From: Trichodelitschia bisporula
Taxonomy: Eukaryota
DNA: 55,007 bases
Assembly (NCBI GenBank): GCA_010356995.1
Contig: ML996702.1
Location: 741,609 to 796,615, forward strand
Reading direction: 5' to 3'
The notes below the pieces were generated by a model. It worked only from the letters and a program-made list of their open reading frames with translations, was not told where the DNA came from and did not search any database. Position 1 is the first letter of the stretch; each line of letters begins with the position of its first letter. Positions 7,964 to 55,007 of this stretch are shown here, in pieces. The translations under genes and the position numbers were made by a program.

Positions 7964-10397
7964 ATGAAGCCTAAACTGAAGGTCAAGCACGAATACATCA
8001 GTGTGGGTGGAAACCGACACCCTGGTGCCGCCGACTGGGACCAATACAATTACACCGACGTTCTAGCTTTCGGTGCAGATAACAACATCGCTTTTTGGGA
8101 GCCTCTAGTACGTTTTGTCTCCAACATCTGTATTTCTCTCGCGAACTGCCGCCTAGACGCAGCTAATGGAGTAGGATCCCAAGAAGGAAGGCATATTCCA
8201 GCTCCTGTCGGGGCATTCGGCTGCAGTGAACGTAGTCAAATTTTTGCCCGGAGATAATCTTCTCAGCGGATCCGATGACAAGACTATCCGACTCTGGCGA
8301 CTAATTCTAGGCAGTGATGGCATCGGCCTGTTCCGCCCGATCAAATGTGTTGATGCCCACCAGTCCTCAGTCAAGTGCATGGCAGTCCTCGGCGGGTCTG
8401 ACATCTTCGTCAGTGGAGCCGCCGACGGGACTGTCCACATATGGAGGCTTGATGGAGACGACATCATTCTCCTGCAGGCCATCTCTCTCTCCCCCAAATA
8501 CTTTCCACTCGCCCTTTCCCTCGCACGGCTTGACGACAAGTCGTATGTTCTGGCTGTTGGGGGCACTCGAAACTCGATCCAGGTCTACACTTCCAAAAAT
8601 GACGAATTCAGCTTGGCGGCTACGCTCTCCGGCCATGAAGGCTGGATCCGATCGCTCGCATTTACGAAGGAGCTCGACTCAGACGATCTCCTGCTCGCCT
8701 CTGCCAGCCAGGACCGGTACATCCGGCTCTGGCGAGTCCACCAGGGACTGGACCTCCCCGCAAGCCGCGCCGCAGATCCAACCCTCGGCATTCTAGGCAA
8801 GTCCCTCTCCAACAAAGCCCATCGCTTCGAAGTGAACGAGCAGAAATACTCTGTAACGTTCGAAGCACTTCTGCTCGGCCACGAAGACTGGATCTTCTCC
8901 GCCTCGTGGCACACCTCAGACGGCAAACTGCAGCTCCTCACCGCATCAGCCGACAACTCGCTCTCAATATGGGAAGTCGACCCGCAGTCTGGTATCTGGA
9001 TGTCCGTCGCCCGCCTCGGCGATGTCAGCGCGCAAAAGGGCTCAACGACTGCAACCGGCAGCACCGGCGGCTTTTGGACAGGCCTGTGGTCGCCGGAGGC
9101 AGACGCCGTTGTCAGCCTTGGCCGTACGGGCAGCTGGCGGCTCTGGCGGCGGGGCGAGCAGTGGACGCAAGACGTTGGTGTAAGTGGCCACACCGGCGAG
9201 GTCAAGGCGCTGTCGTTCGCCGGTCACACCTACATGCTGTCGACGGGATTCGACCAGACAACACGCCTGCACGCCGAGTGGGAGCGCGATGGTCTTAAGT
9301 CGTGGCACGAGTTTTCGCGGCCGCAGATCCATGGGTACGATCTCAACTGTATTGCGTCCGTCGACGGGACGCGCTTCGTGTCTGGCGCGGACGAGAAGCT
9401 GCTTCGCGTGTTTCAGGAGCCGGCCGCGGTGGCAGATATGCTGCACCGACTATGCGACATCGTTCTCCCAGATGGCCCACTGCCAGATGCAGCGAACATT
9501 CCGGTCCTCGGTCTCTCGAATAAAACCATTGAAGACGCCGCGGACGAGGAAAACCCCACCCCCGCACCGCACAAAGCCGTGTATGATCTCTCCCACCCGC
9601 CCCTCGAAGACCAGCTTGCCCGGCACATGCTCTGGCCCGAGGTCGAGAAGCTCTACGGCCACGGCTACGAGATCTCTGCTGTCGCGGCCAGCGAAGACGG
9701 CAGGTTTGTGGCTACGGCCTGTCGTGCGAGCTCCATCGACCACGCCGTCATCCGCCTCTACGACACGAGGGACTGGTACGAGATTAAACCGGCCCTGCGC
9801 GCGCACTCGCTTACCGTCACGGCGATGGAGTTTTCATACAAGAACGAGTTTCTGCTGTCCGTGGGGCGCGACCGGCAGTGGGCGCTGTGGAAGAAGAATA
9901 AGCGGGAGGAGTGGGGGCTGGGCTTCTCAAATCCTAAGGCGCATGCACGGATGATTCTGGATGCGGCGTGGGCGCCTCCGTGTGCTGGTCTGGTGTTTGC
10001 GACGGCGGGGAGGGACAAGGTGGTTAAGGTCTGGGAGGTGGGTGATGAGGAGGTGCAGTGCGTGACGACCATCACTGCAGAGCATCCCGTCACTGCGGTG
10101 GCGTTCCACCACCTGCCGATCTGCGATAGTCCTATTCTAGCCTATGGGCTGGAGACGGGCGGCATTGTGCTGTGTCGTTTACGGCCATCATCACTGGAGA
10201 TGATGGTAAGCTTCCAAATGGATGCTTTGCTTGCACCTTCCAAGGCGGTGAATCAACTCGCTTGGAGATTCGGCAACCTCGGGAACACTTACTTAGCAGC
10301 GGCAAGCGACGACACGTCGGTACGAGTTTTCAACGTGGACGTGTGTGCTATTTGCGGGGTAAATCTGGATCCGGACTATAATTCCGACGATGAGTAA
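7964..10397 (+). CDS. ELP2: Elongator complex subunit 2 (WD40)
   Basis: EYISVGGNRHP start; intron 8108-8174; GHEGWIRSL, FEALLLGHEDWI, WHEFSRPQIHGYDLNC, LWPEVEKLYGHGYEI motifs. Confidence 0.96.
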
Positions 10398-41782: not shown

Positions 41783-42970
41783 ATGCCTTCCCCCGCCGAC
41801 GCCGCGCAAAAGCTCCCCGCCCTCATCCCACGTCAGCGCAAACAGCCCGCATCCGAGCCACCACCGCCAACCCCGCCTCTCCCCCCACCACCAGAAACGC
41901 CCACCTTCACCGTTCCCACCCGCCGCATCCTCTCTCCCCACGACCACGAGCTCTTCCTCGCCTCCCCAACATACACTCTCATCCTAGCCTGGATCTTCAA
42001 TATCGCCGACTCAGTCCGCGCCACCCCCGCCTCCGCCGCCTCCTCCGCGCCACACCCCACCCTTAACACAATCCTCAGCATCCTCTCCGATGCACAAAAC
42101 CTGATCACACAATACCCGCCGCTGGACACAGGCTCCCGCTTTGGCAACCCACAGTTCCGACCATACCTGGCTGGCGTGACCGGGCAGCTAGACGCATGGC
42201 ACGCGCGACTCGGTCTTCCCGCTGACGCGGTGCCAGAGGTGCGCACATACCTACAACACGCGCTGGGCAGCGAGTCGCGCATAGACTACGGGTCAGGACA
42301 CGAGCTAAACTTCATGCTCTGGCTGCTGTGTCTCAACCGGCTCAACCTGCTCCCGGAGTCCACATTCCCCGCCCTCGCACTCGTCGTTTTCCCCGCCTAC
42401 CTGCGGCTCGTGCGCGCGCTGCAGACGACGTACTATCTCGAGCCAGCCGGGTCGCACGGCGTGTGGGGCCTGGACGATTACCAGTTCCTCCCCTTCCTGT
42501 TCGGCGCGTCGCAGCTTGTGCACCACGCGTGGATTACGCCGCGCGCGATACACAGCGAGGTTACGCTGGAGGAGCACAGTAGGGACTACTTGTACCTAGA
42601 CCAAGTGCGCTTTGTGAACAGCGTTAAGAACGTGGAGGGGCTGCGGTGGCACTCTCCGATGCTGGACGACATTAGTGCGGCGCGGGACTGGGTCAAGATC
42701 GAGGCTGGCATGCGCAAGATGTTTGTCAAGGAGGTGCTCGGCAAGCTGCCGGTGATGCAGCACTTTCTGTTTGGCAGTCTGATTCCCGCTGTTGACGGCA
42801 TGAGCGTCGACACTGGCGGGGAGCAGGGAGGACACGTGCACGAGCACGAGAACGGGGAGAGCGCGTGGGGCGACTGCTGCGGGATTCCCGTGCCGAGCAG
42901 CATCGGGGCGGCGGAGGAGATGAAGAAGCGCATGGGCGGCGGCGGGTTGCGGCGACTGCCATTCGATTAG
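41783..42970 (+). CDS. RRD2: PP2A phosphotyrosyl phosphatase activator (PTPA), Rrd2 type
   Basis: SRFGNP, RIDYGSGHELNF, YYLEPAGSHGVWGLDDYQFLPFLFG, WHSPMLDDIS, WGDCCGIPVPS. Confidence 0.9.
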   Translation: MPSPADAAQKLPALIPRQRKQPASEPPPPTPPLPPPPETPTFTVPTRRILSPHDHELFLASPTYTLILAWIFNIADSVRATPASAASSAPHPTLNTILSILSDAQNLITQYPPLDTGSRFGNPQFRPYLAGVTGQLDAWHARLGLPADAVPEVRTYLQHALGSESRIDYGSGHELNFMLWLLCLNRLNLLPESTFPALALVVFPAYLRLVRALQTTYYLEPAGSHGVWGLDDYQFLPFLFGASQLVHHAWITPRAIHSEVTLEEHSRDYLYLDQVRFVNSVKNVEGLRWHSPMLDDISAARDWVKIEAGMRKMFVKEVLGKLPVMQHFLFGSLIPAVDGMSVDTGGEQGGHVHEHENGESAWGDCCGIPVPSSIGAAEEMKKRMGGGGLRRLPFD

Positions 42971-43101
42971 AACGACTGCTAGCGAGCGGTTGTCGCTGTC
43001 ACGCAGTAGTAGTTATTTAGATAGCTCCGTTGCACTAGTTATATAGCAGCAGCTAGTAATATAACAGTAGCCGCTCAGGCTAACGCTAAGACATCTAATT
43101 A

Positions 43102-43215
43102 GCCGTCTAACGCGTCCCGACGCCGTTTAACCCGACCCGAAGCCGTCTAATCCGTCCCGAAGCCGTCTAACCCGTTCGAAACCGTAAAACCCGTTCCGAA
43201 GCCGTAAAAACCGTT
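43102..43215. repeat. 20-bp tandem repeat, ~6 degenerate copies
   Basis: Consensus gccgtctaacccgtcccgaa. Confidence 0.85.
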
Positions 43216-43308: not shown

Positions 43309-44729
43309 TTCATCACAATCCATTAACCTCAACTCGAATAATCACACATCGAAAAAATGGCAAAGGATATGTCTGATTCCGCCTCCAAGTGGTCCATGGT
43401 GGCCTTAGACACAATCATCAAATATCTCATGTCCACGAAAGAGAGGCAAGAGCGCCTGGCGCAATCGCGCCCGACCCCAAAAGCAGTCGATAGTGACGAG
43501 CTTCGCGCTGAACGGCTGAAGGAGCAGGAGGAAATCCTCGACTACCTTTGGACGCGTGGATAGGTAGGATGAGAACCCAGTATGCTTTAGAATCGCGACT
43601 AATTCATGGTAGACTGGCTGATGTGAACACGGGCCGTAAGGCACGAAGGCACCAAGCAAGTACTGTCAAGGCACTCGTGAGGATGGAAGGTATCGTTTGT
43701 ATCCTGGAAGGGGCCCATCTGTGAGTAGGGCAGGGAGTGAGGGTCAACACCAGGCCTAAGGGCAGTTATTGACCGGGGCAGTGGAAGGCGATATGGGACT
43801 GCTGTTTGCAGACTGCTGAGGGCCCCGAGACGCTGCTGCCTTCTTTGTCCTTCTCTAAACTTTTCAGAAGCTTACTTTGCCTGTGACGAGGCCTTGCCTA
43901 CATCACCTACCCTCCATCCTGCTTTCGCCAACTCTGGCTGCGATTCACAGTTGCAGATACCAACATTTGGTCCTGAACTCCAGCGGATCGCGCACCATTC
44001 TCCCAACGCCGAGGCATTCAAGCTATGTACAGCTAGCGTCAAAGAAGGATCTCAACGTTGAGCAATCAAGTGGGTGTGCTGTCCCGGGAAGTCAGGGCCA
44101 CCAATGGTGTAAACGTATTTCAGCAAGAAGGAAAGCACCAGTGGGTTCTTAGGTGCTTAGATAATGCGAAAAAAACGTCCGACAATGCCGATAGCTGGTG
44201 GTCACGGTGGTGTTCAGTCTAGAGTGATGGTGCAGATGAAAGTGGGACTCAAGCAAGTGTAAGCGCAAGCGCGACCCGTCAGATCCCTGCATGCCGATCC
44301 CATCCTACTCAGTTTTGACATCAAGCCGTCAACTCTTGACCTCGGTTTTCAGAGCGATATGACGCTCCACGTTTGCACTCATTTTGGCTTGCCATGCTGC
44401 CGCCCTCCCTCCGCTTCTCGCCCGGCGAGTTCCCACTGGTCCTCCTCCTGGGTTTGGGGGACAGCGTGTCCCTCGAGATAGGCTGTCGGTGGTCAGGCTG
44501 CGCCCCCCGGTGCCGGGACCAGCTGCAGCTGTTACTGGACAGACCGAGAATACCTTTACGCTGTTGTCACAGCCCCCCCACGGGACTGGAAGCGCCGAGC
44601 TCCCCCGCACTGAGTAATCCTACAGCTGAGGGCGAGTCGCTCGCGGACCTGGTTCATTTCCCATCAGCTTTTCGCCTCTCCAGCATCTCGAAACTGAGCA
44701 ACAGAGCGTCTTGACAGCTCTGAACCATC

Positions 44730-47700
44730 ATGGTACGTATGTTCCTTCGCTACACAGCTCTTGCTCCTTAAGGCCGATGTATGCCGTTTTCACTCCCATG
44801 TGTGGTACAACTGTATTTATTGTATCTGAGCTCTTTCTGTCATCGCCTTTGGCCCTTACTAACTGGGTTCAGGACAAATTTTGGAACAGACAAAGGCGTA
44901 AACATGGCAAGAAACGCGATGAAGCCGGTGACGGGACCGATTCTGGCGCAGCTAATAATCATGTTACACTCCGTCCCCCCGTCGGCCAGCCCTCCACCGA
45001 GCCCAGTGAGCAGCGCGTGCCACGATCATCATTGAGTCCCGGCCCCACAGGCCGCGAGACGGTTGTTCCCACATCGCTACCAAACTTGCGCACCCTAACC
45101 CTCGTCGCGGCGCCGAGCGGTTCTCCCGCTGTGGATATCATATTCGTTCACGGACTCGGCGGTTCAAGCCATGCAACCTGGGCCAAAGGCGGCAACCCGG
45201 AGCTCTTCTGGCCAGGTGAATGGCTTCCAAAAGAGCCGGGTATGGAAAAGGCCAGGATTTTCACCTATGGTTACAACGCGGATTGGCTGTCGACCGAAGC
45301 CAACAACCAGACTATTGGGAATTTTGCCATGGACCTACTGGCCTTGATGGCTCGTAGCCGAAATCATGATACAGGCGAAAGCCACGAAATCGGAACCGTG
45401 CCTATCCTGTTTCTCGCCCACTCAATGGGAGGGTTGGTCGTGAAAAAAGCATACATCGATGCCCTAAATGCCCAAAGCAACCCAAAATACCTCCGAATCG
45501 GCTCCTCCGTCAATGCTATGATCTTTCTGTCGACCCCCCATTTAGGCTCTGACGCGGCCCCATTGCTCGGGAAGCTCATCTCAGTGTCAGTCGTCCTTTC
45601 AGACACCCAGTTTAGGCACAGTCTAGAACGAAATTCGAAGACCTTGGAAACCATTAACAAAGGTTTCCGCCACCACACGGGCAAGCTTTTTCTTGCGTCC
45701 TTCTGGGAGACTCTGGAGACCCCCTTATTCGCCCAACTGAGCCGCAAGTTTCCGCGCAAGGTTCAGGTCGTGGACAAAGGCTCGGCTAGACTTATGTGTA
45801 CCGGGGAAATGTACATGTCCTTGCAAGCCGATCATCATGGTGTTTGCAAATATACCAGCAGGCAAGATTCCAATTACCTGAAGGTCCTAAACACGATCCG
45901 TGATGCACTGGAGGCCAGTGAAGTGAGTCCCTATATTCATTGCTACGTCTAATACTGACTTGGCCCAGTCACCTGAAATTGGTCCTCAACCGCCTGAGGA
46001 TCCTCGGCTAGTCATGGATGGCTCATCCAAAGGTGAGCGTCAAACCTAAGTTACTTTGCAGCCTGACTAAATGTCTAAGATTGTGCCCCCAAAGCGACCT
46101 GTTTCATTCCCTCTCAACCAAACGAAAACTTCGTCGGCAGGAATGCTGAGCTCGCGAAGGTCCAAGGCCTCTTCGCAGACAAAACCAACCGAATTTTGGC
46201 AATTCACGGCCTCGGCGGACTGTCACTACCAGTTGAACAAATGGCCACTGTTATGGATGACCAGTATTTGTGGGATACAGCGTTGGAGAAACTCGAATAT
46301 AAAGAACAAGCAGCGATCAAAAACCACTCGGCAGCTGCGGACGACCCATCAGCCTTTCAAGATATGGTCGAGGCAGTCAAGAGAAAGAAAGAGGAGTATA
46401 AAAAAAAAACTTGGCCCGTTAAAATTGGGAAATATCGCTTTGAGCTACATGAGGTGGCAACAAGCATCGTGAAGTGGCTGGACAGGTTCAAGGCCGTGGG
46501 GGACATTGTTTCAAATGCGAACCCACTTCATTTCGGCCCAGCATGGGCCGGGTTTCGACTTGTTCTTGAGGTATGGAGGGACATTCGCTGTTCTTCAGAT
46601 CTAACTGATTTCAAGGTTGCACTTTCAGAACAAAAAGTCATGGCTGCACTTTGCGAAGGCGTCCTCGCTGTGCTCAACATGATGACCAGGCTGAGGCTCT
46701 ATAAGAAACATCTTCAAGCCCTACAGGAATCAGATGAACGGACCGCTCTTGCTGGTTCATTCACACAACTGTACGCACATGTCTTGAGTTTTCTTGCCAA
46801 AGCAGCTTTATGCTATGAGCAAAGCGCTCTCCTTCGCATCTGGAATGCCGTTTGGGGACCCGACAAAGTGAGCAACTTTGAGGAGCAATGTGGCAAACTT
46901 GAAGAGAGTGTTGAGAGAGACCTCCACAACTGTGACCGTCAAAAATTCAAGGCCCTAAGCAAGGAGCTGGAGCAGTTGGAAGTCCTGCGAGAGTCAATCA
47001 GCAGCCTGGCATCCAAGATGAATCTAAATGAACTGCTTTACGCCAACGGTGCCGCATTCGACTCATATCAAGAAGAGGATCAACCAGTGTGCCATGAGAA
47101 GACCCGAGTCGGCTTGCTGAGCGAAATTTCGAACTGGGCCAACGCTCCCAGGGCCTCCAGTAAATACATATTCTGGCTGAACGGCATTGCTGGGACTGGA
47201 AAGTCGACCATCTCTCGTACGGTCTCTCGGGATTTGAAGAAGAAAAATCAGCTTGGAGCAAGCTTCTTCTTCAAGCGAGGTGAAGGCGACCGCGGCACGG
47301 CGAGCAAATTTGTCACTACGATCGCATATCAGCTATGGACCAATCAGTCTGAAGTGTCACCCTTTATTGCAAAAGCGATGGACGACAACCCGGCCATACT
47401 TACAAAGTCACCGAATGATCAGTTCAAGGAGCTCATTTTCCAGCCTCTGTATGAGACCATGGATATTCGGTCACAGACTTCGATTGTCATTGTGATTGAT
47501 GCGTTGGATGAGTGTGAAGATGCAGATAAGATTCTCGCTCTCTTGGAACAGGGCAAGGATACGGGTCTGCAAATATTTCTAACCAGCAGGCCAGAGCTGC
47601 CAATTCGCAAAGGATTTAAAAAGAAAATATCGGAAGACGCGCATCAGGACGTTGCTCTCCACGATATCCAGGAAGACACAATCCGACACGACATATCCAC

Positions 47701-50234
47701 TGTTTTGGAGCACAAGCTCACAGAAATACGGGAGGACGGCTCATTGCCACCCGACTGGCCGGGTGTTGACATGATTCAGAAGTTGGTCGACATGGCAGTT
47801 CCGTTGTTCATTTTTGCCGACACCGTGTGCCGTTTCCTTGCTGAAGATATCGTCGATCCCAGCACAGCTTTGATGATGTTCCTCGACCACAAGAATCATG
47901 GCTCTCAGATGGAGCAAACCTACCTTCCCATTTTGGAACGACAGCTTGTACCGCTCAAGGGGAAGGAGTGGTACCGAGATAAAGTACTGCAAGATTTCCG
48001 AAAGATTATTGGTACGATCATTCTCCTTATCGAGCCACTCTCCACTGCCTCGCTTTCGAACTTTCTTGGTGTTGAAGAACGGGCTATCCGAATCACACTG
48101 CAGACACTGCATTCCGTGATCAGGATTCCAGAAGATCAAAACGCCCCAGTAAGGCTTTTCCACCTGTCTTTCCGCGACTTCCTTGTGGAACCTTGTGCGA
48201 AGGATTTTTGGGTGAATGAGCAGGAGACGCATGGGGAACTGGCCGGGAAGTGTCTCGAACTCATGTCTAGAAGCCTCAAAGAGGACATTTGCAACATCCA
48301 GGCAAACCAAGGTCCGGGAAAATTGCGGGCCGAAATCAGCGATGAAACGATAAAAGCGTACTTGCCAGCCGAAGTCCAGTATGCTTGCCAGTACTGGGTA
48401 CACCATCTCAAGAACAGCAAAGCACCTTTGTCCTACCAAGGCACAGTACAGGCCTTCCTGCAGGAGCATTTTTTGCATTGGCTCGAAGCCATGAGCCTGA
48501 TTGAGAGAATGACAGAGTCCGTCAATGCAGTTAGCACACTGCGGTCGCTTTTCTCGGTATGAGAGCCGCAATATTTCATCACAAGTTAGCTAACACAATA
48601 GACCGATAGCGGCAAAAACACCGAACTCCAGAGTTTTCTTTCCGATGCAAAAAGTTTTCTCCTAAAGAACTGGGGGATGATCGAGCATGCGCCGCTCCAA
48701 ACTTACATTTCCGCGCTTACCTTTGCTCCGGAGAGGAGTGCCATTCGAAAGCAATTCCACACGCAGAAGCCCCGCTGGATACGCCTGCAACCTAAAGTGC
48801 AAGACTGGGATGCGTGTTTTCAGACGCTCGAGGGCCATTCGGGATATGTCAGGGCCGTGGCCTTCTCGCCGGACGGCAAGCAGCTGGCGTCGGCATCTTC
48901 TGACAAGACGGTCAAGCTCTGGGACGCCGGCTCGGGAAAGGCGCTGCAGACGCTCGAGGGCCATTCGGGTTGGATCTGCGCCGTGGCCTTCTCGCCTGAC
49001 GGCAAGCAGCTGGCGTCGGCATCTTCTGACAAGACAGTCAAGCTGTGGGACGCCGGCTCGGGAAAGGCGCTNNNNNNNNNNNNNNNNNNNNNNNNNNNNN
49101 NNNNNNNNNNNNNNNNNNNNNNNNNNNNNNNNNNNNNNNNNNNNNNNNNNNNNNNNNNNNNNNNNNNNNNNNNNNNNNNNNNNNNNNNNNNNNNNNNNNN
49201 NNNNNNNNNNNNNNNNNNNNNNNNNNNNNNNNNNNNNNNNNNNNNNNNNNNNNNNNNNNNNNNNNNNNNNNNNNNNNNNNNNNNNNNNNNNNNNNNNNNN
49301 NNNNNNNNNNNNNNNNNNNNNNNNNNNNNNNNNNNNNNNNNNNNNNNNNNNNNNNNNNNNNNNNNNNNNNNNNNNNNNNNNNNNNNNNNNNNNNNNNNNN
49401 NNNNNNNNNNNNNNNNNNNNNNNNNNNNNNNNNNNNNNNNNNNNNNNNNNNNNNNNNNNNNNNNNNNNNNNNNNNNNNNNNNNNNNNNNNNNNNNNNNNN
49501 NNNNNNNNNNNNNNNNNNNNNNNNNNNNNNNNNNNNNNNNNNNNNNNNNNNNNNNNNNNNNNNNNNNNNNNNNNNNNNNNNNNNNNNNNNNNNNNNNNNN
49601 NNNNNNNNNNNNNNNNNNNNNNNNNNNNNNNNNNNNNNNNNNNNNNNNNNNNNNNNNNNNNNNNNNNNNNNNNNNNNNNNNNNNNNNNNNNNNNNNNNNN
49701 NNNNNNNNNNNNNNNNNNNNNNNNNNNNNNNNNNNNNNNNNNNNNNNNNNNNNNNNNNNNNNNNNNNNNNNNNNNNNNNNNNNNNNNNNNNNNNNNNNNN
49801 NNNNNNNNNNNNNNNNNNNNNNNNNNNNNNNNNNNNNNNNNNNNNNNNNNNNNNNNNNNNNNNNNNNNNNNNNNNNNNNNNNNNNNNNNNNNNNNNNNNN
49901 NNNNNNNNNNNNNNNNNNNNNNNNNNNNNNNNNNNNNNNNNNNNNNNNNNNNNNNNNGCTGTGGGACGCCGGCTCGGGAAAGGCGCTGCAGACGCTCGAG
50001 GGCCAATCGGATATCAACGCCGCGGCCTTCTGGCTGGACAGCAAGCAGTCGCCAGGTTCCGGATTGGATATTCCACGTTTCAGGATTGTCAGGGAATGGA
50101 TAACCATTGGCGCGGAAAGACGTCTTTGGCTTCCAGTCGAGTATCGCAGTCCGGTAGCCGTGGCCATTCGCGGGGATAAGATTGGCTTGGGGTATTGGTC
50201 TGGTCGGGTGCTGTGTATGGAATTTATTTGCTGA
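44730..50234 (+). CDS. Fungal NLR: alpha/beta-hydrolase (SesB/PGAP1-like) + truncated NB-ARC + helical N-terminal domain + NACHT + highly conserved WD40 repeats (HET-E-like)
   Basis: ATG-only exon 1; DIIFVHGLGG, LAHSMGG, DHHGVCKY; introns 44733-44872, 45923-45968, 46033-46079, 46571-46615, 48557-48601; NACHT GIAGTGKST and IVIDALDEC; APLQTYISALTFAP; 126-bp WD repeats spanning an assembly gap. Confidence 0.88.
48821..50005 (+). repeat. Tandem 126-bp WD40-coding repeats, mostly hidden in the N gap
   Basis: Units start at 48821 and 48947; the same sequence resumes after the gap at 49958. Confidence 0.92.
49072..49957. other. Assembly gap (886 N)
   Basis: Run of n. Confidence 1.
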
Positions 50235-50444: not shown

Positions 50445-51800
50445 TGTGAGAAGGGATTGACTTGATTAATTTTCTAGCAATGAGAGAGACTGTGTTTTGT
50501 ATATCCAAGTGATTGTCCTCTGGAATCTTCCAGCCTGTTCCCTTTTGCCACACATTACAAATTGTGTGTCACAGTCGGCTTCTGCTTGCCGACGCCACAG
50601 TTGGTCGCGCAATGATGTGGCGAGGTTGTCATATGCCACCGCCATCACTCCCTCTCAAGCTCGCAGCATCATTCTTTCCTCCCTCCGTTTATTCTGCTTG
50701 GATCTAGCCTGCAGTGATCGATGAGGCGGAGATGCACTTCAGGACTGAGTGCCTTCGTAAGTCCATCAGCGACCATCTGTGCAGTTGGTAGGTATGGAGT
50801 TGTGATCCGTCCAGCTTGCACCTGTTCTTGGACATAGTGGTATTGGACGTCGATGTGCTTGCTGCGCTTGTGGAACTCTGGATTCTTTCCTAGAGCTATT
50901 GCGCTTTGGTTATCTGCATGAACCTTGATGGGTTCTCTGCCTTCCTGGTGGAAGCCCAATTCCATAAGCAGCTGCTTGAGCCATGTCGCTTCTCTGATCG
51001 CTTGGCACATAGCAATGTACTCGGCCTCGGTCGTCGATAGGGCGACGATTGATTGGCGCTTCGATGTCCAGCTGATGGGTCCTCCGTTCAGGGTAAATAT
51101 ATATGCCCCTGTCGAGCGTCTTGTTGCACTGTCTTCGGCGAAGCTGGCGTCTGTGTACCCAGCAAGTTCGATCGTTTTGTCGTCACTCACTCCACCGTAC
51201 ACAATATGATAATTGATCGTACTGCGTAGGTAGAGGAAAATCCTTTTGAGCGCATTCCAATGCTCTGGTCCAGGGTTCTTCATGTGTTGTGCAAGGGAGG
51301 AGACTGCGAAGGCGATGTCTGGACGTGTCATGGTCATTGCGTGCATGACGGAGCCTAATTGTGCGGCGAACTCGTTTCTTACTGTATCGGTTGCAATGCC
51401 GTCGTATGGCTCGAGTCGTTGGCCTGTCACCATTGGTGTTTTGATGTTGCGGCCATTGCGGCTGTACCCGTATTTGTCGAGGATTCTCTCGAGGTATGCC
51501 TTCTGACTAAGAGTGATCGTCCTTGCTCTGCGGTCGCGTGTGATCTCCATTCCTAGGTAGTGCTTGATGGCTCCTAGGTTTGTCGTTTTGAACTCCCTGC
51601 TCAGTTGGCTGACGACCTGCTTCATGGCGGATTTGTCGCTGCCTATGAGCTTGATGTCGTCCACATAGACTGTCATGGTCAGTCCCGTGCGGATGTTGCC
51701 TTTGACGAAAACGTTGCTGTCCGCCGTAAGTGGCTTGAATCCGATTTTTGTCAGAAATGTTGTGAGCCTTTTTGCCCACTCGCGGGCTGACTGTTTGAGA
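50445..51800 (-). mobile_element. 5'-truncated Ty1/copia retrotransposon: RT-RNaseH, PPT and 3' LTR (50445-50647)
   Basis: LKQSAREW, TVYVDD, YLGMEI, TRPDIAFAV, GYTDASFA..RRSTG, STTEAEY, KHIDVQYH, ADGLTK; TTGAGAGGGAG PPT directly before the TG of the LTR. Confidence 0.95.
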
Positions 51801-52052
51801 TGTCGGCATACCCGATGTCGTGTTACCCAGAAAGGCAGGCTTGGCACGGCGAACACCGAAGTGGCGAAGATGGACGACGCCGGAAGTCCGATGGACGACG
51901 CCGGAAGTCCGATGGACGACGCCGGAAGTCCGATGGACGACGCCGGAAGTCCGATGAAGTTCAGGAACATCCTGGAGACCCATCACGGATATATACTGTT
52001 CATTCTGTAAACTAGAGAAGGCAACAAGCTAGGCAATCAATCTTTTCTCACA
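51801..52052 (+). mobile_element. Second LTR-like sequence in opposite orientation, truncating the copia ORF
   Basis: Begins TG exactly where RT homology stops; ends caatcaatcttttctcaca like the other LTR; contains a TATATA box and a 21-bp tandem repeat. Confidence 0.55.
51869..51956. repeat. Perfect 21-bp tandem repeat x4
   Basis: gatggacgacgccggaagtcc. Confidence 0.95.
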
Positions 52053-54480: not shown

Positions 54481-54702
54481 GAGTATCGGAAGGGTCATAT
54501 CTCAATTAAGCGGGGGCGCCTGTTAGGACCCCTGTTCCGTCTCCGCAGCGTCACCTCTGTCTGAACGTGACTCAGGCAACGCTATCCCACACTCCGATTA
54601 TCGCGTGGGGTGACTAGCGAGCTGAGTGCGGGGTTGTACCGTGGCGGGGGAAGGGAGACGAGCTGAGGCAGTGGCGCAGGTGGCGACTGGGCTGGTGGCA
54701 CG

Positions 54703-54793
54703 GGTGAAGTTGGTGGCGCGGGTGGAGTTGGTGGCGCGGGTGGAGTTGGTGGCGCGGGTGGAGTTGGTGGCGCGGGTGGAGTTGGTGGCGCGG
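54703..54793. repeat. 18-bp tandem repeat x5
   Basis: ggtggagttggtggcgcg (PPTPPA on the minus strand). Confidence 0.93.
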
Positions 54794-55007
54794 AGGAGAT
54801 AGTGGCGCGGGTGGAGGTGGCGCTCAAGAATCAGGCTCTCTGTGCAGGGTCTCGGATGACATACACAGGATTATCCCCCTAGCATCCTAGCATAGCTTCA
54901 CGTCTTTATCAATGGAGGCTAATGAGAGGACATGCTGTACGTGACCGTCTCCCTTTTCCGCCTTGGACCAGGTTGAGCTAGGGCCTGGCCCCGTCTTCGT
55001 CAACGCT

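Follow-up and report, generated by a model that had tools for sequence, protein, structure and literature searches.

The question raised by this locus is whether two fungal NOD-like receptor (NLR) genes, belonging to different classes of nucleotide-binding oligomerisation domain (NOD), have been joined into one gene that makes one protein. The locus is found at 44730 to 50234 (+) of a stretch of 55,007 nucleotides from Trichodelitschia bisporula (contig ML996702.1, positions 741,609 to 796,615), and this whole stretch is referred to below as the window. The initial annotation had described, at 45969..46300, a hydrolase-NB-ARC gene cut inside its P-loop and fused in frame to a complete NACHT-WD40 receptor. 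The sequence reads in this way, with the hydrolase followed by two introns, a stub ending in GLGG, the codons LSLPVEQ and the N-terminus of a NACHT receptor, and no stop in between. On balance we consider it probable that a fused hydrolase-NB-ARC stub-NACHT-WD40 protein is made from what is a real, lineage-specific chimeric NLR locus of T. bisporula.

The donor class is present in the same organism as P0001, an unfused DUF676 hydrolase-NB-ARC-TPR protein of 881 amino acids. The hydrolase encoded in the window (the window copy) is 95% identical to that of P0001 over 96% of the hydrolase, 92% identical to that of P0002 and 91% identical to that of P0241. The genes for these three proteins, all flagged as partial, each lie on a contig other than that of P0121, the public model of the NACHT half discussed below, and the hydrolase family in T. 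bisporula has at least four members with 91-95% identity. Hydrolase, linker and intron positions are common to the window copy and P0001. The stub is identical to residues 360-406 of P0001 at 43 of 47 positions, and the likeness stops after GLGG, where P0001 goes on with TGKTQIALQF and the window copy reads LSLPVEQ. This bears out the view that the stub is the start of an NB-ARC domain ending before the Walker A GKT, and the likeness indicates that it descends from an NB-ARC gene. As the Pfam NB-ARC domain of P0001 covers residues 387-588 (model positions 8-209 of 248), the stub keeps approximately model positions 8-27, about 20 of 248, without the Walker A lysine. The partial NB-ARC match that had been expected from a profile search is found in this way by transfer from P0001, but not directly: searched alone, the stub matched 0 Pfam families, and the same was true of the 54-residue stretch before the methionine at 46241 (M46241). 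The 46 codons of the stub contain neither the Walker A motif GxxxxGK[ST] nor the ARC subdomains of an NB-ARC domain.

The point at which the two parts meet was placed by RNA contigs of the paralogues, taken from two runs (X1 and X2) of one sample. Two such contigs in X1 and three in X2 match the window up to 46218 and then encode T-G-K-T-Q-I-A-L-Q; since they leave the window at this base, the DNA break is at 46218/46219, which is inside an exon and inside the donor P-loop. This agrees closely with the earlier proposal that two NLR genes of different NOD classes had been joined near 46220. The break in homology at this point is not a chance effect. On the other side, paralogue contigs show a likeness of approximately 90-93% on 43697-44023 and 44356-44539 and stop matching before 43311, so that the copied unit corresponds to about 43311-46218 (about 2.9 kb). 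A search of the 55-kb window by tblastn with P0001 found no NB-ARC or TPR remains elsewhere, and RIP indices showed no composition of the repeat-induced point mutation (RIP) type in any segment; RIP as a cause of the divergence between copies is ruled out by this absence.

Within the duplicated unit is a 68-codon open reading frame (ORF) at 43357-43563 (+), beginning MAKDMSDSASKW, which has no Pfam match. Paralogue RNA contigs are spliced directly after its stop (joints 43560>43610 and 43561>43639, GT..AG), and it could represent either a small gene in its own right or an upstream ORF belonging to the hydrolase family. Among the paralogues, P0241 stops after the hydrolase. P0002 is a hydrolase-TPR protein in which the sequence ending in GSARLM runs straight to one ending in AAYLNRNKLS, without the His region and the whole NB-ARC domain; it is either a second rearranged member of the family or an artefact of the gene model.

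The junction is real and transcribed. The contigs of both runs were treated as RNA because they join across introns 1, 2 and 3 and the intron within the NACHT part (Table 1), all with GT..AG ends. Contigs matching the window exactly, with 0 other letters, measure 2205 nucleotides in X1 and 2284 in X2. They cover 46165-46568 and then 46614-48414 (X1) or 46614-48493 (X2), and as the 45-nucleotide intron is missing from them they represent spliced RNA of this locus. They cross 46219 with 54 nucleotides on the left, including the R-I-L codons proper to this copy. The join that had been read from the letters of the genome is thus crossed by spliced transcripts running from 46165 into the NACHT part, and its presence with 0 mismatches in contigs from separate runs excludes misassembly. 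The first base at which the window copy departs from the coding sequence of P0001 is 46195 (R-I-L against R-M-V). The exact contigs start 30 nucleotides before it, and this start is therefore better read as a break in a 31-mer assembly graph than as the start of a transcript, in which case the true 5' end would be at or upstream of 46165. Upstream of 46165 the contigs listed carry paralogue letters, for example at 44941 and 45853; as contigs drop rare variants, these letters have no bearing on whether the window hydrolase copy is transcribed.

The NACHT half is identical to the public protein P0121 (EJ06DRAFT_498328, hypothetical protein, Trichodelitschia bisporula, 1005 aa), with the exception of 15 codons which P0121 takes as an intron; by tblastn, P0121 also bridges the gap of 886 N in the WD40 array as though it were an intron. 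Relatives of this half are named HET-E-1-like. The recipient had been thought to be a complete NACHT receptor, and in this respect the initial annotation has to be corrected. A HMMER search was run with residues 1-310 counted from M46241, and of the 150 representatives listed 96 have a match starting no later than query residue 20. Among these 96 there are 81 with at least 30 residues (median 61) ahead of the point matching M46241, so that the recipient most likely lost a leader of its own of about 60 residues. When 24 relatives are aligned, their N-termini carry a short basic motif (often RKRDR), followed by a linker rich in S, P and T and by a helical domain which begins at the position of YLWDTALEKL in the window. 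The seven bridging codons LSLPVEQ align loosely with the S/P-rich linker of the relatives and are either 5' untranslated region of the recipient or the tail of the lost leader, so the junction may be coding-to-coding. A basic motif of the form [RK][RK]R[DE] was seen in the first 40 residues of 29 out of 235 NACHT_N relatives, of 0 out of 109 hydrolase relatives, and in none at a control position; KKRD is also present in the leader of the T. bisporula hydrolase family itself (window 44873-44920).

While the donor class has its unfused counterpart in P0001, as the initial annotation had foreseen for both parents, the matches listed for the NACHT half include no close unfused copy, the best T. 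bisporula paralogues being P0124 (57%) and P0168 (46%). P0124 has a PNP_UDP N-terminus, and P0168 has an N-terminal leader followed by the helical domain. Their different N-termini show that this end of the protein has been re-assorted among members of this clade in a single genome.

As regards domains, exon 2 matches the Pfam family DUF676 with 25.8 bits (cut-off 20.3) and PGAP1 with 22.9 bits, which is below the cut-off of 24.3. The hydrolase motifs HGLGG, AHSMGG and ADHH are kept, in columns conserved to 92-100% in 118 distant relatives. These include S184 of the xHSMGG elbow and H321 of DH(H), in columns conserved to 97% and 99%, respectively, so that the nucleophile and the candidate His proposed earlier are retained and may be the catalytic residues. 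A PDB sequence search with the hydrolase gave 0 matches. The frame from 46079 matches DUF7708 (25.6 bits, cut-off 25), NACHT_N (18.9 bits, under its cut-off of 30), NPHP3_N (2e-31) and NACHT (1.2e-6; 28.9 bits, cut-off 26.7). After the bridging codons the frame enters MATVMDDQYLWD; the recipient body opens with M46241 (MATVMDDQYLWD) and continues with ATVMDDQYLWDTALEKL, and its Walker A motif GIAGTGKST is intact and in frame near 47180-47209. NOD with Walker A, WD40 sensor and N-terminal effector or adaptor domain, the parts of a fungal NACHT-type NLR (STAND NTPase, signal transduction ATPase with numerous domains), are all present. The WD40 repeats are 126 nucleotides long and 93% alike, and the last repeat, the C-terminus and the stop are found in the tail frame at 49959-50234. 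Between ATG 44730 and the start of the N gap (49072) the spliced frame contains 1339 codons without a stop, and all five introns of the model have canonical ends.

Table 1. Coordinates of the NLR locus and of the duplicated region upstream of it (window positions).
Feature	Position	Strand	Basis
5' part of duplicated unit, upstream region common to expressed paralogues	43311..44729	+	Paralogue RNA contigs
Exon 1, start codon only	44730..44732	+	Sequence; in-frame stops just 5' of ATG 44730
Intron 1	44733-44872	+	Contig joint 44731>44872 (cut +1, GT..AG, skips 140)
Exon 2, DUF676/PGAP1-like (sesB-like) alpha/beta-hydrolase	44873..45922	+	Pfam and paralogue identity
Intron 2	45923-45968	+	Contig joint 45922>45969, GT..AG
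Exon 3, linker SPEIGPQPPEDPRLVMDGSSK	45969..46032	+	Same linker in P0001
Intron 3	46033-46079	+	Contig joint 46029>46077 (cut +3), GT..AG
NB-ARC stub, first 46 codons of exon 4, reading DCAPKATCFIPSQPNENFVGRNAELAKVQGLFADKTNRILAIHGLGG and ending GLGG	46080..46218	+	Likeness to P0001
Junction and seven bridging codons LSLPVEQ (46220-46240)	46219..46240	+	First base unlike the paralogues is 46219
Recipient body, DUF7708/NACHT_N helical domain, then NPHP3_N/NACHT NOD	46241..48556	+	Pfam
In-frame intron within the NACHT part	46571-46615 (45 nt)	+	Letters missing from the exact-match contigs
Intron before the WD40 array	48557-48601	+	Canonical ends
WD40 repeat array	48602..50234	+	Pfam WD40 5.9e-31; gap of 886 N inside (49072-49957)

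The locus is best explained by recent partial copying of a sesB-like hydrolase-NB-ARC-TPR gene that exists in several copies. The copied piece, of about 2.9 kb (43311-46218), stops in the P-loop; in addition to the region 5' of the gene it comprises hydrolase, linker and some 46 codons leading into the NB-ARC domain. Its reading frame continues into that of a DUF7708/NACHT_N-NACHT-WD40 gene present in single copy, the two meeting 21 nucleotides before the first Met of the latter, and the recipient probably lost its promoter together with the leader of about 60 residues. With this loss, expression probably now depends on donor-derived sequence; as the break is only 21 nucleotides from M46241, transcripts of the NACHT part must begin in letters that came from the donor. 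Possible routes are a deletion between two neighbouring NLR genes or the insertion of an already truncated copy. The simple insertion of a NACHT gene into a full donor gene is disfavoured, since no NB-ARC or TPR remains are present in the window. The simple insertion of a cassette into the leader of the recipient is unsupported, as no displaced leader (M..RKRDR) was seen upstream of 43311 on reading the sequence.

That both parts share one transcript, that translation begins at 44730 and that the product has any activity are inferences. The product would most likely be one polypeptide of at least 1426 amino acids, in which the hydrolase is followed by an orphan NB-ARC helix and strand serving as a linker, the helical domain, the NACHT domain and the WD40 repeats. 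By analogy with known receptors, ligand binding by the WD40 repeats would drive oligomerisation of the NACHT domain, bringing both N-terminal modules together.

A number of observations weigh against a fused product, and most of them can also be accommodated by an alternative which we regard as a real possibility, though not a likely one. According to this, the hydrolase-stub piece is a truncated relic which supplies a promoter and/or a long 5' leader, and the receptor is an N-terminally shortened NACHT-WD40 protein starting from M46241. The model P0121 starts at this Met, the upstream part has no public model, and no public protein identical to the window hydrolase copy was found among proteins of 192-2000 aa; from this it appears that the annotators took the NACHT-WD40 gene to stand alone. 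With A at -3 and G at +4, the context of ATG 46241 is a good one for a start by the fungal consensus, and since 12 of the 96 relatives have 15 or fewer residues ahead of the corresponding point, M46241 could be a genuine start. Of the RNA upstream of M46241, the exact contigs prove no more than 76 nucleotides of leader; they bridge the junction but begin 3' of the hydrolase exons, and the joints of introns 1 to 3 were seen in contigs with paralogue letters or in shared ones, and are not proven for the window copy (that of intron 1 is found in one contig per run, carrying paralogue letters). Joining in frame without a stop over seven codons is expected by chance about 1 time in 4 (1/3 x (61/64)^7), so that the open frame alone is weak evidence. 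The window hydrolase copy has the most lineage-specific replacements, 13 compared with 9 in P0241 and 2 in P0001, and shows no significant sign of constraint, with 1 replacement seen in conserved columns versus 3.4 expected, a non-significant shortage (P=0.105). On the other hand, the transcript reaches at least to 46165, where its end looks like an assembly break, and the upstream frame stays open and in phase for 421 codons, its splice sites being intact. Were transcription to start 5' of 46143, moreover, an out-of-frame ATG would precede M46241: the frame opened by ATG 46143 runs to a stop at 46472, beyond 46241, and by this overlap would hinder the use of M46241 on such mRNAs. For these reasons the fused protein remains the reading that we prefer.

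The fused protein could also be seen as part of a wider process, in which the hydrolase module, together with the region 5' of it and the opening codons of NB-ARC, is a recently amplified and repeatedly rearranging effector cassette pasted before unrelated NLR bodies, the present locus then being a functional, newly born dual-effector NLR. The module is found at four or more loci on four contigs, 91-95% alike and each truncated at a different point. We hold this wider view to be doubtful. If it were true, illegitimate recombination inside exons would be at work, the locus would owe its sole promoter and start codon to the donor, and it would be a live example of fungi inventing NLR architectures across NOD classes.

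That the rearrangement disabled both genes and left a decaying by-product, a young transcribed pseudogene still without stops, appears improbable. It would fit with the high number of replacements in the window copy, with the copia-type fragment directly downstream, and with the condition of the relatives, as P0002 without NB-ARC and His region and P0241 ending after the hydrolase also look rearranged or partial and all three public relatives are flagged partial. Arguing against decay are the lack of any stop or frame shift in at least 1339 codons, the canonical ends of the five introns and the absence of RIP-type composition; in addition, the NACHT half is the only close copy among the matches listed and is correctly spliced in RNA.

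An assembly artefact joining two loci, which the multi-copy nature of the region and the 886-N gap 2.9 kb downstream might suggest, is hardly credible, being contradicted by contigs of separate runs with the same junction, 0 mismatches, the variants of this very copy in the 54 nucleotides on the left, and more than 2 kb on the right. Equally, it is very improbable that the architecture is an old conserved linker and not a recent scar: hydrolase-NACHT-WD40 proteins are very common and the relative P0410 stacks HET before NACHT_N, but this explanation is contradicted, at the depth searched, by the 91% identity of the stub to the NB-ARC start of its paralogue, by DUF7708/NACHT_N in 0 of the 120 listed hydrolase relatives and a hydrolase in 0 of the 120 listed NACHT relatives (only proteins of up to 1353 aa, with a Pfam content in part incomplete), and by the 150 best representatives, in 3 of which NACHT_N starts beyond residue 290, preceded in one by HET and in two by no Pfam domain, and in none by a hydrolase. 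The initial expectation that the fusion would not be widely conserved is in line with these counts.

Upstream in the window the neighbours are housekeeping genes (PTPA, P450, Na/H exchanger, UPF1, TDP1, Brix and LtrA-like). Between the end of PTPA and the left border of the duplicated unit there is a 20-nucleotide tandem repeat (43101-43215, 5.3 copies, consensus AGCCGTCTAACCCGTCCCGA). In X1, 42890-43159 is without contig cover, an observation given no weight here. Directly 3' of the NLR gene a Ty1/copia-type reverse-transcriptase fragment (RVT_2, 8e-23) is found at 50669-51982 (-), with a perfect 21-nucleotide tandem repeat on its 5' side (51869-51952). An array of 9/18-nucleotide tandem repeats is present near the window end at 54675-54828, where several frames are open and that of the minus strand is proline-rich. 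A second WD40-rich open frame of 740 aa, at 8175-10397 (+), has only 27-33% identity to the repeats of the NLR.

Fungal NLR repertoires are known for combinatorial assortments of domains, with recent exchanges of N-termini deduced from sequence likeness (PMC4986451). Re-assortment of N-termini is thus already known, and what is new here is a breakpoint mapped to the base, with a scar that crosses NOD classes. No junction which both keeps a fragment of the donor NOD and crosses NOD classes was found in the fungal NLR literature in its available portions, and the supplements of these papers may hold cases. The locus provides one base-resolved case, in which a donor of the NB-ARC class meets a recipient of the NACHT class and transcripts run over the scar. 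Should a fused protein be produced, it would mean that new effector modules can be placed ahead of an N-terminal domain already there, that a recipient may become reliant on the regulatory sequence of a donor, and that shuffling at exon boundaries is not required for such events. If it is not made, the locus is a warning that automated models like P0121 can hide chimeric NLR loci.

Among known systems, sesB-like hydrolases are reported to rank with the most frequent kinds of N-terminal domain in fungal NLRs (Dyrka et al. 2014, PMC4986451), and a 2025 survey of Sordariales describes them in combination with each of the three NB types and places NLRs in which several canonical domains occur in a 'mixed' class (PMC12258605). 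Duplicated NLRs are often pseudogenised according to a 2026 study of Podospora (PMC13449251). The hydrolase part of the locus is close to the sesB-like/NB-ARC/TPR NLRs represented by P0001, with which it has the hydrolase, the linker, the intron positions and the FVGR..EL..IAIHGLGG entry in common; it differs from them in breaking off after GLGG, so that the Walker A lysine, the remaining NB-ARC domain and the TPR repeats are missing from the window. The other part is similar to the NWD/HET-E-type NACHT-WD40 NLRs, which have a NAD1/Goodbye-like N-terminal domain (Pfam NACHT_N, DUF7708), and has the same DUF7708/NACHT_N, NPHP3_N/NACHT and closely similar 126-nucleotide WD40 repeats, whereas the leader, with its median of 61 residues in the relatives, is replaced by the hydrolase and the NB-ARC stub. 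The canonical sesB-like-NACHT-WD40 NLRs (P0003 and more than 100 others) likewise combine an N-terminal hydrolase with NACHT and WD40 domains. In contrast to the locus, they carry the winged-helix set PF22939, lack DUF7708 and any remnant of NB-ARC, and have a hydrolase only 40-50% identical to that of the window.

The nearest precedent for the event itself is given by Dyrka et al. 2014 (Table 2, PMC4986451), where NODs with 80-99% identity and different N-termini led to the conclusion that recent domain fusions are recurrent. As in those swaps, a young event has put an N-terminal module on a different NOD lineage within one genome. In that paper the swaps were deduced from NODs that are almost the same but carry different N-termini, whereas here the breakpoint itself is visible, in an exon and in the P-loop, and crosses NOD classes. 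A further difference from the swaps is that the module has been added to the N-terminal domain of the recipient and does not replace it. Such stacking of domains is seen elsewhere in P0410, in which HET is found ahead of NACHT_N-NACHT-WD40.

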